Shown in pieces: positions 46,501 to 50,193 of a DNA stretch of 64,000 bases. Location of the stretch: assembly GCA_964364265.1 (NCBI GenBank), contig CAYILA010000001.1, forward strand, positions 6,808 to 70,807, in the 5' to 3' direction. This stretch comes from an uncultured Candidatus Saccharibacteria bacterium (GTDB lineage Bacteria > Patescibacteriota > UBA1384 > XYA2-FULL-43-10 > 1-14-0-10-43-13). Every line of letters begins with the position of its first letter. Position 1 is the stretch's first letter. Made by a program: the position numbers and the translations under genes. The notes under the pieces are model-generated. The model was given only the letters and a program-made list of their open reading frames with translations, did not search any database and was not told where the DNA came from.

Positions 46501-47075
46501 ATTACAGGGAAGGGGAACATGAATTAAAAGTGGTTTTGGTTGATGAAGAAGGAAATATAGCCGAAACTGCGAGGACTGTAAATATTAGCGATGTTCCAAG
46601 AGTCGAAATAATCTCGCCGGATAAAGAGCAATATTTAGAATCTGATCAAATTGAGTTTTCGTACAACTCGAACAATGAAAATGTTGTGGCTGAATTGGAC
46701 GGGAATATTATTGAGAATGGTATTCATAAATTTGGTTATGAAATAGGACTTGGCAAACACACCTACATTTTGGAGTATAAAGCTAGAATATTGGCGCAAA
46801 AAGAATTTGAAGTTTATACTAATTTTTTCGATGTTCGAAATCTGATCACGATGTTTTACCAGGAAGGTGATTTTTCAAACAATGGGATTTACATTGCTAC
46901 CCTTTCTCAACTAAAAACCGCAGAGTCTGCGGACGCATCGGGCAAAGAAAGCTTGAGCGATTCACTGCTACAGCTATTGATTAAATTCATCGCAATTCAA
47001 AACAGTGTTGGCCATCTGAGTGATTTTGCAGAAGAGATATTAATTAATTCTTTAAATTATTTAACTAACATTTAA
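43536..47075 (+). CDS. 1179-aa secreted multidomain protein: PQQ-like beta-propeller repeats, PHP-like phosphoesterase segment and Ig-like/cadherin-like domains
   Basis: A signal peptide. Repeated WEKS/WRKT/ELWRT...G motifs are typical of PQQ propellers. LHSHYIPD ... ALTEHNMI ... ILAHPN resemble PHP-domain metal-binding motifs. C-terminal beta-sandwich repeats follow. A TGTTATAAT promoter-like element lies upstream. Confidence 0.55.
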   Translation: MKKIAAVFLLLFSLLMSSISVLANDWPVEQSNTTRNAYLGDFPVSSDLSVQWTKNAELNNFQLPVYSNGIIYFSEEGHYISGPKLSYVYAVEKSSGREIWRKTFPEYLKSDIYAGDGKVIVPGETLKCLDGATGTTIWEKSASTAGYYFVEPMIVGDKLIAIYRGKYGGGSIIGYNLSNGVELWRTVPLIFSNGRILSVYNGNILATVSTSYNETEVSSFSSETGAKNWTYVRGFNPNGPVIVDEVNGIGFLSSIVNITTAIDLNTGLKRYEYPAMGTYNTTSVIKNRTAHWLSIISSQTYFNSCGLIDKVCSQKQIDTRQNYLTGIEPLMIGNDYYYLTNTGKLKRYNVAGGMGDSYSVDPTRTNLQYLLYFEGMFVAMDYYKTKMYVLGSGAEPIDASSVVELDSPYKTDGVYGSYLGQLHSHYIPDVALWSKIFNGDPTPAFTEQKYKDAGYDFVALTEHNMIIPDPGVGGILHIVNSEEDTQDPGGNHILAIGVNSPIDEAMSEQDRINAVANQGGVPILAHPNSAIYPWSQKTLFSLNNYNILEIKNGVTQRLDYLHYLGSSLSTDKWDNLLGSSRKILGTAGDDYTPGDAGFDNASVVVFSKTNSQSDILQNLKDGNFYALQGSSAPKINIQTSGNKITISSDRQSNIRFISRGKTIQENRNTASATYTANGSEIYIRAEVESGGKRSWSQPIFVNLKQVAKTPFPGGYKISFAGGTLTSKNTSPVEISTLSQNQYPSNSPQLGYLSQIYSLLSQSQPSDGTKLTLSYDGRTILTNENNLSIYNYNSGNSAWEKVPSIIDKTKKTVSAFLSHFSLYTLSAEEPEDLEKPTINLTSPIDMNDLSGSITLEASAADNNAVIKTGFYADDRLIGEDTDPTDGWSGALDVNSLKNGEHKIIVTAEDLSGNVGEAEYLFTVTSSTFLQPTILLFEPLENSELWELSDVSGGFNSNLPVSDISILLDGYVVAEAEISGGNFSKEINWQDYREGEHELKVVLVDEEGNIAETARTVNISDVPRVEIISPDKEQYLESDQIEFSYNSNNENVVAELDGNIIENGIHKFGYEIGLGKHTYILEYKARILAQKEFEVYTNFFDVRNLITMFYQEGDFSNNGIYIATLSQLKTAESADASGKESLSDSLLQLLIKFIAIQNSVGHLSDFAEEILINSLNYLTNI

Positions 47076-47359
47076 AACAAAACAAGACCGAATATTAAAT
47101 CAGTAGCTAATTTCAGAAAAATTAGCAAAGATAATAGTAGCAAAATAATGTTGGCAGGTGTTTTTCTCTCTTTAATAGCCGCCAGCGAACAGATCAGCGT
47201 AACAAATGGTAAGATAGTTAAAATTATACCAATTAAGTTTACGCTAGAACTATTGGTTACTATGAAGTAAAATACTGCCCACAAAATCAAAAACACCCAA
47301 GCTACGATGCCGTAGATGTTGCCCTTGGAACCATCAGAACTCTTTTGAATATTTGCCAT
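47072..47359 (-). CDS. small membrane protein (3 TM)
   Basis: The ORF is hydrophobic throughout. Confidence 0.4.
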   Translation of the reverse strand: MANIQKSSDGSKGNIYGIVAWVFLILWAVFYFIVTNSSSVNLIGIILTILPFVTLICSLAAIKERKTPANIILLLLSLLIFLKLATDLIFGLVLF

Positions 47360-47442
47360 TTCCCTCCTTTAATTCCACTTTGATTGTTTAAATTTTACCA
47401 CATCTTTTTGAATTAACCCACTCAATTTAAAATTAAAAAATA

Positions 47443-47484
47443 CCTTGCACAAATATGAGACGGCCGTTTCATATTTGTGCAAGG
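47443..47484. promoter_or_regulatory. 16-bp perfect inverted repeat CCTTGCACAAATATGA-N10-TCATATTTGTGCAAGG in a divergent promoter region
   Basis: Seen directly. The loop gacggccgtt is itself palindromic. Confidence 0.45.
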
Positions 47485-47605
47485 TAGGAATGGATGAGTT
47501 CTTTATTATTTGGTATAACTAAATGGTGGGGGATAATGGATATAAGACAAGAGATAAAAGTTATTGGCTAAGAAACGAAAAGATTATTATCTATAAATAA
47601 CATGA

Positions 47606-48346
47606 TTGGAAAATATGAGAAGGAATTATCTGTACGATCCGGCGTCGCAGGGAGCGCACAAGATTAGCCGGAGTAAAATTGATCTGTTTGTAAAATGCCC
47701 CCGCTGTTTTTACTTGGATCAGCGACTGGGTGTGAAAATCCCGCCCGGATATCCCTTCAACATCAACTCTGCGGTCGATTTTCTTTTGAAAAAGGAATTC
47801 GATATCCATCGCGCCAAGGGCACGGCCCATCCCTTGATGCAGGAATACAAGGTTAACGCGATTCCCTTCGCCCATGAAAACATTGATAAATGGCGGGAGA
47901 ATTTTGTCGGTGTCCAATACTTGCACGAGCCCTCTAATTTACTGATAACCGGCGCGGTTGATGATCTTTGGGCGCGTCCGAACGGCGAGGTGATCGTTGT
48001 CGATTACAAAGCGACGGCCAAAGATTCGGAAGTGAATATTGATGCCGAATGGCAAGACGGTTATAAAAGACAGATGGAAATTTACCAATGGCTGATGCGA
48101 AGAAACGGATTTAATGTTTCTGAAACAGGATATTTCGTCTATTGTAACGGCAGACGGGACAAAGCAGCTTTTGACGGCAGAATCGAATTTGACATCAAAC
48201 TAATCCCCTACGAAGGCGATGATTCTTGGGTCGAGCCGAAAATATTAGAAATTAAAAAAACTCTTGATGAAGAGAGTATTCCGGAGCAAAGTCCGGATTG
48301 CGAGTACTGCAATTACACCAAGGCGCGCGAAAATATTGAGTGCTAA
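47606..48346 (+). CDS. PD-(D/E)xK nuclease superfamily protein with four cysteines (Cas4/AddB-nuclease-like Fe-S arrangement)
   Basis: N-terminal CPRCFY and C-terminal CEYCNY bracket VDDLW ... VVDYKATAKD, a D ... (D/E)xK core. Confidence 0.5.
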   Translation: MENMRRNYLYDPASQGAHKISRSKIDLFVKCPRCFYLDQRLGVKIPPGYPFNINSAVDFLLKKEFDIHRAKGTAHPLMQEYKVNAIPFAHENIDKWRENFVGVQYLHEPSNLLITGAVDDLWARPNGEVIVVDYKATAKDSEVNIDAEWQDGYKRQMEIYQWLMRRNGFNVSETGYFVYCNGRRDKAAFDGRIEFDIKLIPYEGDDSWVEPKILEIKKTLDEESIPEQSPDCEYCNYTKARENIEC

Positions 48347-48413
48347 GCTGAACTAAAAAGAAAAGGCCATCCGTGAAGTACGGGTGACCTTTGGGGAGCC
48401 GGCGGTGAGCCGG

Positions 48414-48977
48414 CTAAGGGGAAGAGACGACAACTATGTGGAAACGACGCTGGCGGCCAAAATCGCGAGCGATTTTGTGATTGGGAACCCGTATATCAAC
48501 CCGGTTTCCCTTAATCGCGCCACCACGGTCATCGACTCTCAAAGTGCGGATATGACCCAAGTACTCTAGAGTGACGAGTGTGCCGGGAGTCAGGACCCGA
48601 GGGTCAGCTGCAATTCCCGGCAGGTGAGCGTTAACACCTTGCGATGTCCGGCCGCCTGTGTCACAGACTGAACAATTGGGATCGTATGCGGTAGCATCGA
48701 CGGTCATTCGCCGGAGAACCCGGTGATAACCGCCTCTTGAGGCAAGGAGATCTCCCCGCCGGAGGCGGGAAAATTCCTTGAGGGTTTTGACGGACAGCTT
48801 TTGCGGTTTGGGTCGAAAAGCCGCCTGCCTTCTTGTCGTCGGACTCGTCTGCTTAATCCTTACGGACTTGGCCGGCCTTTGAATCGATTGACTCTTTCGA
48901 GTGCTTTCGGCTCTTTGGCCTGCGGTATGCCAGCAGACAAGGAGTAGCCCAACGGCTGCAAGGGTGAAAATTCGCAA
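48414..48977 (-). CDS. 3D-domain protein (MltA/YuiC/Rpf-associated cell-wall-binding domain), secreted
   Basis: A signal peptide, then a C-terminal DATAYDP ... GRTSQGVNAHLPGIAADPRVLTPGTLV ... DDRGGAIKGNRVDI, which is the 3D-domain pattern. The start is TTG. The gene is GC-rich. Confidence 0.65.
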   Translation of the reverse strand: MRIFTLAAVGLLLVCWHTAGQRAESTRKSQSIQRPAKSVRIKQTSPTTRRQAAFRPKPQKLSVKTLKEFSRLRRGDLLASRGGYHRVLRRMTVDATAYDPNCSVCDTGGRTSQGVNAHLPGIAADPRVLTPGTLVTLEYLGHIRTLRVDDRGGAIKGNRVDIRVPNHKIARDFGRQRRFHIVVVSSP

Positions 48978-49012
48978 GACTTTCTCCGTTCCGCCCTTCT
49001 TAAGGCCTTGAA

Positions 49013-49041
49013 ATTCTATAATAAAAAGCTCAATTTGTCAA
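49013..49041 (-). promoter_or_regulatory. sigma70-like promoter for the 3D-domain gene (TTGACA-N17-TAGAAT)
   Basis: Read on the minus strand: ttgacaaattgagctttttattaTAGAAT, about 30 nt upstream of the start codon. Confidence 0.5.
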
Positions 49042-49058
49042 TCCCAGAAAAGTGGGTA

Positions 49059-49087
49059 TTGATATTGGATAATTTATCTGCTAAAAT
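49059..49087 (+). promoter_or_regulatory. sigma70-like promoter (TTGATA-N17-TAAAAT) driving the structured leader/sRNA
   Basis: ttgata ttggataatttatctgc taaaat. It is divergent from the 3D-gene promoter. Confidence 0.5.
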
Positions 49088-49093
49088 GCTTTC

Positions 49094-49266
49094 ATTCTGT
49101 CTCTAGCGGCAGTAGTGCGAAAACCGTGAGTGTGAAAGGGCGAGTGTCCCATCTTGGCAGGTCCTAGCCGATTGGCTGGTCGTCCTTTACCTCATGGGTA
49201 CAAATCAAGCTAGCCGCCGTGAGGCAGAAAAACTGGAGCGCCCCCGCGGGCGCTCCTTATCTTTTT
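49094..49266 (+). ncRNA. unidentified structured RNA (~175 nt) ending in a strong intrinsic terminator, immediately upstream of the beta-lactamase-like gene; candidate riboswitch, attenuator or sRNA
   Basis: The region is GC-rich with nested complementary segments: ccgtgag/ctcatgg, gggc..gtccc and agcc-gatt-ggct. The terminator ggagcgccc-ccgc-gggcgctcc plus ttatcttttt sits at 49235-49266. No ORF is present. The downstream gene has its own AAGGGGG RBS at 49288. Confidence 0.4.
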
Positions 49267-49302
49267 AGTAGTATAATGGTACCAAGGGGGAATCTCTATA
49301 AG

Positions 49303-50193
49303 ATGATAAATGGAATTATCTTCACCATTGTGGTTAAACGATATCTAAAATTAATAATTATCATCGCGGTTGTTCTGATTCTGATTCTTTCCGCTTCTTT
49401 TATATATTTTAAAAAAAATAATGCCAATAATTCTTCGAGCAACACCAAACAATCGGATCAAAGTGATAAAGATGCCGAGGCAAAAAGAAAATCAGAAGCC
49501 AGAGAAGAAAATATTAATTTGGCAATCAAAAAGGTAATCGTAAAATACGACAACATCGACATCGCAGTCAGTTTTGAAGATATCGACAACGGCGATAGCA
49601 CCAATATTCTTGGCGATAAATTATTCATTGCCGCCAGCACGGTGAAAATTATTGTGGCAACTGATTTTCTGGAACAGATGCAGGATGGGAAATATGGTAT
49701 GAATATGAAAATGGGTAACCATGACGCCAATTATCATCTGGAGCAGATGGTGTCGCAGAGCAACAACGATTCGTGGGCGCTGTTTAATAATTTGCTTTCT
49801 TTCGCCGGCGAGGAGCAATACGCCAAAAAGATTGGTATCACATATGTCAGTTCCAATAATTCGATCAAACCGAATGACATTAACGCATTTTTGGGAAAAC
49901 TTTATCGCGGGGAGTTATTAAATAAAGAAAATACCGATCTTCTATTATCGCTGATGCGTGTTACCCACGACGACCGCTACCTCCCCGGTTCGGCAGTAAA
50001 GGCGAATTACTACCACAAGACCGGAAAATATGAGGCCTATGTCCATGATGTCGGAATCATTGACGATGGGACACACAAATACGCTATTTCAATATTTACA
50101 GATGCGCAGTACAAGGATTACACGATTGACGGCCGGATCCCGATTTTCCACGAGATAGTTGAAGCGGCCTACGCCGCCGCCAATATTAATTAA
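49303..50193 (+). CDS. class A beta-lactamase-like serine hydrolase (PBP/beta-lactamase fold), N-terminally anchored
   Basis: AASTVK (SxxK), SQSNND (SxN-like) and HKTGKY (KTG), preceded by an N-terminal TM and a Ser/Asn-rich linker. The start is set at MINGII (49303), not 49219, because the ORF track start overlaps the terminator. Confidence 0.6.
   Translation: MINGIIFTIVVKRYLKLIIIIAVVLILILSASFIYFKKNNANNSSSNTKQSDQSDKDAEAKRKSEAREENINLAIKKVIVKYDNIDIAVSFEDIDNGDSTNILGDKLFIAASTVKIIVATDFLEQMQDGKYGMNMKMGNHDANYHLEQMVSQSNNDSWALFNNLLSFAGEEQYAKKIGITYVSSNNSIKPNDINAFLGKLYRGELLNKENTDLLLSLMRVTHDDRYLPGSAVKANYYHKTGKYEAYVHDVGIIDDGTHKYAISIFTDAQYKDYTIDGRIPIFHEIVEAAYAAANIN

Follow-up and report, generated by a model that had tools for sequence, protein, structure and literature searches.

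Setting of the Intergenic Region

Does the short region in front of a beta-lactamase-like gene hold a switch that controls that gene, or an RNA gene in its own right? The question arises in a stretch of 64,000 nucleotides, all of which was analysed and which is called the window here. An earlier note had described a promoter, a structured RNA and a terminator at this place, divergent from a gene for a 3D-domain protein, and had left the choice between a riboswitch or attenuator and an independent small RNA. The described sequence features are all present, at positions agreeing within 1-2 nt. They are given below together with their surroundings.

47615-48346, + strand: PD-(D/E)XK/Cas4-like nuclease gene
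48367..49325: lineage-specific segment as delimited by alignment, with the 3D gene, a divergent pair of promoters, the RNA with its terminator, and the beta-lactamase-like ORF's new 5' end
48414-48977, - strand: gene for a secreted 3D-domain protein of 187 aa, TTG start, SD sequence GGAG about 10 nt upstream
49041..49013, - strand: predicted promoter of the 3D gene, TTGACA-17-TAGAAT, 11/12 match
49059-49087, + strand: predicted promoter of the RNA, TTGATA-17-TAAAAT with a TG extended -10, 10/12 match
49095-49229, + strand: rod, one unbranched imperfect hairpin of 135 nt with 48 bp including 8 G-U (MFE fold)
49117-49123 and 49198-49208, + strand: main A-rich internal loop of the rod, 5' strand GCGAAAA and partner GUACAAAUCAA (MFE and centroid folds)
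49159-49166, + strand: apical loop AGGUCCUA (MFE fold; closing pairs with probability 0.95)
49235-49266, + strand: intrinsic terminator, 9-bp stem (8 G-C), CCGC loop, tail UUAUCUUUUU
49272-49277, + strand: perfect TATAAT directly after the terminator, with no recognisable -35 (read from the sequence; unlisted by the promoter scan)
49284-49290, + strand: ribosome-binding site AAGGGGG of the hydrolase gene, 12 nt upstream of its ATG
49303-50193, + strand: gene for a membrane-anchored serine hydrolase of the class A beta-lactamase fold, ATG at 49303

Profile searches agree with the identities proposed earlier for both neighbours. The downstream gene, described as having a PBP/beta-lactamase fold and a strong ribosome-binding site, matches Pfam Beta-lactamase2 at 2.5e-24 and carries AAGGGGG at 49284-49290. 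Its score against NCBIfam bla_class_A is 47 bits, far under the 200-bit cut-off, and NCBI labels the product 'MAG: serine hydrolase [Patescibacteria group bacterium]'. Further downstream, Rfam places two tRNA genes on the - strand. The 116-kb contig that contains the window is also present in assemblies from the Hainich groundwater wells, from which ERZ1292623, ERR3858113 and ERR3858114 derive. The divergent gene at 48414-48977 is indeed that of a 3D-domain protein, with matches to Pfam 3D at 6e-10 (6.2e-10) and to PHROG 3D/peptidase families at about 1e-14.

The 3D-domain protein appears to be nearly an orphan. An exhaustive protein search places its nearest relatives at 35-45% identity, and the best non-self match among 1.8 billion cluster representatives reaches 40%. 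Relatives in GenBank phages are limited to 34% identity or less, and the viral collection yielded none. A word-indexed protein search missed even the protein's own entry, though the entry is present in the collection.

A Promoter, a Rod and a Terminator in Register

The near-consensus promoter claimed for the RNA, TTGATA-N17-TAAAAT, lies at 49059-49087 and matches the consensus at ten of twelve positions, with the TG extension adding to the -10. Sites of this quality (10/12) occur 19 times on the + strand and 22 times on the - strand of the 64 kb, and only four sites reach 11/12 or better, the promoter of the 3D gene among them. Judged from promoter spacing only, the RNA would start at A49094, which is 7 nt past the end of the -10 and immediately precedes the rod, whose pairing begins at 49095. 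On the other strand, the 3D mRNA is predicted to start at about 49006, with a leader of only about 29 nt.

Folding of the region bears out the claim of a structured RNA. The rod at 49095-49229 has an MFE of -59.1 kcal/mol on the + strand (z = -4.64), a stability that none of 200 dinucleotide shuffles attains, whereas the reverse complement on the - strand reaches -45.1 kcal/mol (z = -2.74) and is thus 14 kcal/mol worse. It is built from an 18-bp closing stem, an asymmetric 7 x 11 nt internal loop and a 28-bp apical stem, the closing stem pairing the very 5' end of the RNA with 49221-49229. Most base pairs have probabilities of 0.7-1.0, and two weak pairs within the internal loop have probabilities of about 0.45. 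The G+C content of the RNA (0.55) equals that of the tRNAs of the window (0.53-0.64), against a background of 0.42, and the predicted transcript holds no small ORF with a ribosome-binding site and no credible ORF.

The terminator begins 5 nt after the rod closes. Its stem-loop occupies 49235-49256 and is followed by TTATCTTTTT, with an energy of -20.3 kcal/mol; a G+C-rich stem-loop with a U-tract directly after it is the form of an intrinsic terminator. The GC hairpin and T-run that had been noticed before the hydrolase gene are therefore present as a stem of 9 bp with 8 G-C pairs, and the ATG follows 36 nt past the U-tract. Given an A-rich tract upstream, the terminator looks as if it could be bidirectional. 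The predicted transcript would be about 172 nt long. Rod and terminator are modular: folded together they give an MFE of -79.4 kcal/mol (z = -5.27), which is the plain sum of the two parts (-59.1 + -20.3 = -79.4). The promoter, the better fold of this strand and the terminator tail agree in assigning the RNA to the + strand.

A minor alternative pairing was seen within the rod. The heptamer CCGUGAG occurs twice in the RNA, and the 3' strand CUCAUGG is able to pair with either copy (49124-49130, 49191-49197, 49217-49223). Formation of the resulting 7-bp hairpin would break up the inner helix along with a portion of the closing stem and leave the terminator untouched.

These features can be set against the view that the element is fortuitous, or very young and without a selected function. 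Under this explanation, G+C-rich lineage-specific DNA folds by chance between an A+T-rich spacer, in which the true promoter is that of the 3D gene, and a terminator that does no more than isolate the beta-lactamase-like gene, and any RNA made there is transcriptional noise. The rank of the rod is in keeping with such a view: in a sliding 140-nt scan of the window it comes only about 11th among 3652 positions by stability after G+C correction, outranked by tRNA clusters and perfect palindromes. Alignment of one arm of the rod against the other gives G-U and A-C appositions in a ratio of 7:2, a bias that fits selection on a + strand RNA rather than a decaying DNA palindrome; with nine events it is statistically weak and only suggestive. 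Against chance stands the coincidence of three independent signals in register on one strand, namely the promoter, a hairpin beginning at its predicted +2 and a terminator 5 nt further on. With about 19 promoter sites per 64 kb, the chance of finding one within 10 nt of the right place is about 0.3%, and the 14 kcal/mol in favour of the + strand fold also speaks against it. We consider a fortuitous element possible, though rather doubtful.

Relation to the Downstream and Divergent Genes

The order of the elements (promoter, structured RNA, terminator, 36 nt, ribosome-binding site, ATG) is what a cis-acting leader of the beta-lactamase-like gene would show, with transcription stopping at 49266 unless a ligand, a protein or a tRNA allows read-through. 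Read-through may matter to this gene, which has no convincing promoter of its own: the TATAAT at 49272-49277 is a -10 that lacks a -35, and it is a possible candidate for a weak promoter of the gene. In relatives, moreover, transcription reaches the gene from an upstream operon, which the window lacks.

The structure of the RNA argues against this leader model. Neither an antiterminator nor any other structure competing with the terminator was detected: with the 3' arm of the terminator blocked, the rod keeps its fold, and the 5' arm pairs only with itself and with nothing upstream. The 5 nt between rod and terminator leave no room for an expression platform or antiterminator. Known terminator-type riboswitches (ydaO/c-di-AMP, RF00379; T-box, RF00230) resemble the locus in the order promoter, structured RNA, terminator, ribosome-binding site and gene, and in their cell-wall neighbours. 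In contrast to them, the RNA of the window has no mutually exclusive antiterminator and forms an unbranched 48-bp rod rather than a multi-helix aptamer, and orthologues of the downstream gene lack the element. No Rfam riboswitch, T-box or leader family matches.

The absence from orthologous loci is consistent. For these comparisons, we used a covariance model, R1, made from the single sequence and fold of the rod. The RNA is absent upstream of the beta-lactamase-like gene, with no match to R1, at all seven other loci inspected, where the encoded proteins share 36-80% aa identity with the hydrolase (L001/L002, 80%; L003/L004, 59%; L097, 43%; L005, 39%; L094, 36%). Upstream gaps at these seven loci measure 5-158 nt, with 13, 48, 17 and 158 nt in front of the homologues at 59%, 43%, 39% and 36%, respectively. 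A cis-acting leader is hence improbable in our judgement, and a riboswitch or attenuator of the beta-lactamase-like gene is left unsupported, with no Rfam match, no antiterminator and no counterpart at seven other loci. Of the two readings offered by the earlier note, the riboswitch is thus unsupported by structure, family search and conservation, as far as the sequence can show, and the independent small RNA stands as the best surviving one. The note had named three outcomes beforehand as speaking against a riboswitch, and it is these that were obtained: an empty cmscan search, no orthologous locus with the segment and no covariation.

Control of the divergent gene by c-di-AMP had also been suggested, as 3D-domain genes often belong to such a family. 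This idea found no support. No match to the ydaO model (RF00379) occurs on either strand, and the hairpin is separated from the 3D start codon by the promoter of that gene, which leaves the hairpin outside the 3D mRNA. A T-box leader is likewise rejected, with no match to RF00230, a gap of only 5 nt before the terminator, and a serine hydrolase as the downstream gene.

A Lineage-Specific Segment

Alignment to the related locus L001 provides more detail about the origin of the region. Homology is lost after about 48366 and regained at about 49326, which delimits a segment of about 0.95 kb. Three independent assemblies, one from ENA (L006) and two from Logan (L007, L012), carry it with 100% identity, and it can therefore not be an assembly artefact or a chimera. 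In the closest relatives, L001 and L002, which occur in SRR22388308 and SRR22388209, the hydrolase is 80% identical, and the nuclease of L001 is 88% identical. The interval between nuclease and hydrolase there holds an ORF for a 120-aa membrane protein and an ORF of 52-60 aa, and these ORFs abut the hydrolase gene. The hydrolase is the last gene of a three-gene unit that encodes the 120-aa membrane protein, the 52-60-aa Lys-rich protein and the hydrolase (L001 1026-1590; L002 1-622). Its start in these relatives is a GTG aligned with position 49330 of the window, where the ORF has nine additional N-terminal codons and a new ribosome-binding site. On this alignment, the segment is a lineage-specific replacement of two small ORFs. 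The closest relatives do without the RNA at this locus, where it can thus not be essential.

The earlier description of a G+C-rich, probably acquired islet holds in part. Presence and absence agree with it, in that two small ORFs occupy the position of the segment in the relatives. The composition does so less than it seems to. No other 564-nt stretch of the window is as G+C-rich as the 3D gene (0.567; mean 0.419, sd 0.042), but the GC3 of this gene, 0.54, is close to the 0.52 of the neighbouring native PDDEXK gene, and the RNA has the G+C content of tRNAs. The signal of a foreign origin in the composition is weaker than its appearance and would support acquisition only weakly. No flanking repeats of a mobile element were found around the segment, the only match being an inverted one of 15 nt between two A/T-rich terminator tails. 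Compared in full by blastn, the segment had no counterpart among GenBank phages or PLSDB plasmids.

Two kinds of mobile or element-associated sequence were considered and rejected. A repeated palindromic element or MITE does not agree with a single copy in the 64 kb, no copy in 1.14 Mb from other Patescibacteria and a G-U-rich fold that is strand-specific. For an omega RNA (TnpB/IscB), an IS110 bridge RNA or a retron msr-msd, the partner genes are absent among the flanking genes, which encode the 3D-domain protein, the serine hydrolase and the PD-(D/E)XK nuclease; the last of these is kept without the RNA in relatives.

Searches for Related RNAs

The earlier statement that the RNA belongs to no known class agrees with the Rfam searches. 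Of the 4227 covariance models of Rfam 15, only those of tRNAs pass the gathering thresholds anywhere in the window. When the cut-off was relaxed to E<=10, the 401 nt of 48950-49350 gave only a match of the terminator to MicX, at 13 bits against a threshold of 75 bits, and the hairpin alone (145 nt) gave nothing. That the RNA is not obviously ydaO, T-box, SRP or 6S is borne out as well, with no model match for any of these.

Searches for relatives of the rod itself gave a similar picture. R1 detects the RNA only once in the 64 kb and not at all in the loci of relatives, and it has no match in 1.14 Mb comprising 80 loci of GTDB Patescibacteria centred on the conserved PDDEXK nuclease. A scan for stable rods downstream of this nuclease in these 80 loci returned only multi-hairpin stretches and one match in a coding region (L075). 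The loci of the nearest 3D homologues (L008-L011; 35-45% identity) contain no similar RNA and no match to R1.

Pattern searches covered larger collections. Exact patterns of apex and bubble had no match in viral contigs, and the apex pattern had none in the JGI metagenomes; a three-loop pattern gave a single chance match there, within coding DNA. The bubble combined with transition-tolerant stems gave no match in GTDB genomes; as self was missed too, the species of the window must be absent from this collection. Homologues of the nuclease number in the thousands at about 61-70% identity, and above 70% only L001 is found. The lineage of the window is hence poorly sampled, which limits the reach of scans with exact patterns.

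All recovered copies of the RNA (L006, L007 and L012) are 100% identical, and for this reason no test for covariation is possible. A fortuitous element, as discussed above, would sit well with the lack of a homologue and of covariation among copies that are all identical, and with closest relatives that have no such RNA. Base pairing with targets was approached through the duplex energies of the loops of the RNA with the translation-initiation regions of the 65 genes of the window, and no target was singled out.

One of the 3D homologues has an upstream region of its own kind. In L009, the gene for P0014 (35% identity) has a divergent upstream region of 395 nt (573-967) with G+C-rich inverted repeats and a run of N. 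It has neither sequence nor model similarity to the RNA of the window.

Comparison with 6S and SRP RNAs

The overall shape of the RNA invites comparison with housekeeping RNAs. With 6S RNA (ssrS, RF00013) it shares a stand-alone rod of comparable size that has a closing stem, an internal loop and an apical stem. A highly diverged rod RNA of this kind, most plausibly 6S-like, binding the RNA polymerase holoenzyme and relocated to this site in this species, would account for a stand-alone gene with its own sigma-70 promoter, for a rod of about 135-172 nt with a closing stem, an asymmetric A-rich 7 x 11-nt loop and a long apical stem, and for a G+C content matching that of the genome's tRNAs. 6S RNAs are, furthermore, known to be poorly conserved in sequence.

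Several observations count against a 6S-like RNA. The strands of known 6S central bubbles measure about 12-17 nt, and the A-rich internal loop of 7 x 11 nt is smaller than these. The terminator hairpin of the window stands separately outside the rod, again in contrast to 6S RNA. No 6S or related model scores on the 145 nt even at E<=10, and the single-sequence covariance model finds nothing in the 1.14 Mb from 80 other Patescibacteria, so conservation among those searched is lacking. A housekeeping RNA would also be unexpected within a segment that varies by presence and absence. Taken together, we regard a relocated 6S-like RNA as very unlikely.

SRP RNA (4.5S, RF00169) is similar in that it folds as one long hairpin, about 110-135 nt in size and interrupted by internal loops, and the 5' side of the apex, GGCAGGUCC, recalls the domain IV sequence GUCAGGUCC. 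The RNA of the window differs from it by the lack of a GNAR tetraloop, of the 3' strand GGAAGCAGCC and of a model match. An assignment to 4.5S RNA was rejected, as the domain IV motif (…GGUCCGGAAGGAAGCAGCC…) is absent on reading and no model matches. The domain IV motif was also sought by fuzzy matching across 1.24 Mb of loci, of which 290 kb were searched with Rfam as well; RNase P and rRNA came up, and no SRP or 6S RNA, a result that says nothing either way.

A Candidate Small-RNA Gene

The evidence is best explained by a self-contained, lineage-specific small-RNA gene rather than by a sensor for the gene downstream, a reading to which we give about an even chance. The promoter match, the fold with its strand asymmetry, the terminator, the modularity and the absence from related loci are seen in the sequences; that the RNA is transcribed, with the ends given, and has a function is an inference. 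In this model, transcription from the sigma-70-type promoter would begin at about A49094, some 136 nt at the 5' end would form the long imperfect hairpin, and the strong intrinsic terminator, 5 bases on, would release an RNA of about 172 nt. The unit would stand back to back with the promoter of the 3D muralytic gene, both lying within the ~0.95-kb segment restricted to this lineage. Most likely it would produce a trans-acting RNA, either a protein-binding rod or a base-pairing regulator. Any effect of the unit on the beta-lactamase-like gene would be passive, with the terminator insulating that gene from the RNA promoter apart from some leak-through.

A stand-alone gene is favoured because the start expected for the 10/12 promoter with its TG extension falls one base from the base of the hairpin. 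The same conclusion is suggested by the z-scores of the + strand against the - strand, the pattern of G-U pairs, the additivity of the energies, the tRNA-like G+C content, the lack of an ORF and the three identical assemblies. The reading is weakened by the lack of a homologue and of an Rfam match, by the rank of about 11th, and by the ease with which promoter hexamers arise in A+T-rich spacers.

The closest known counterparts are stand-alone bacterial small-RNA genes with an intrinsic terminator, lineage-specific orphans that often lie in variable parts of a genome. The candidate has in common with them a sigma-70-type promoter of its own, a non-coding transcript of 100-200 nt, a Rho-independent terminator, a position between protein genes in a region of presence and absence, and a lack of homologues beyond a narrow lineage. 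It differs from these orphans in that nearly all of it is taken up by one 48-bp rod, with no obvious long single-stranded seed and no target singled out.

A more specific proposal can be made, although we hold it to be quite unlikely. The RNA might be functional, trans-acting and restricted to the lineage, having arrived together with the 3D muralytic enzyme, and might tune cell-wall remodelling during episymbiotic growth, for instance as a minimal 6S-like or protein-sequestering RNA.

No description of a small RNA or of RNA-based regulation in Patescibacteria was found in the literature searched. If real and functional, the candidate small RNA would be among the first in this group, and its gene would have been gained together with a cell-wall enzyme in a segment of presence and absence. 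At present it stands as a sequence-based prediction from a single genome. The main value of the analysis is a negative one, in that a 'novel riboswitch upstream of a beta-lactamase-like gene' can be set aside.

The Nuclease Gene and an Upstream Palindrome

Upstream of the segment, the PDDEXK nuclease has a C-terminal Cys cluster and a match to TIGR00372 (cas4) below threshold. Its surroundings contain no Cas gene and no Rfam CRISPR match. Its homologues at about 61-70% identity exceed 8000 in number, and 589 stretches of GTDB species genomes were found to encode a relative, so the nuclease appears to be nearly universal in Patescibacteria.

A perfect palindrome of 21 bp, ACCTTGCACAAATATGAGACGG/CCGTTTCATATTTGTGCAAGGT, with two G-U pairs, is located at 47441-47486. 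It is the most stable 140-nt stretch of the 64 kb after G+C correction (z = -4.98), and it is present in L006, L007 and L012 and absent from the closest relative L001. The palindrome sits between a divergent gene for a 95-aa membrane protein (47072-47359, - strand) and the PDDEXK nuclease gene. This position between divergent starts disfavours a role as terminator, and the palindrome could represent an operator or another small RNA.
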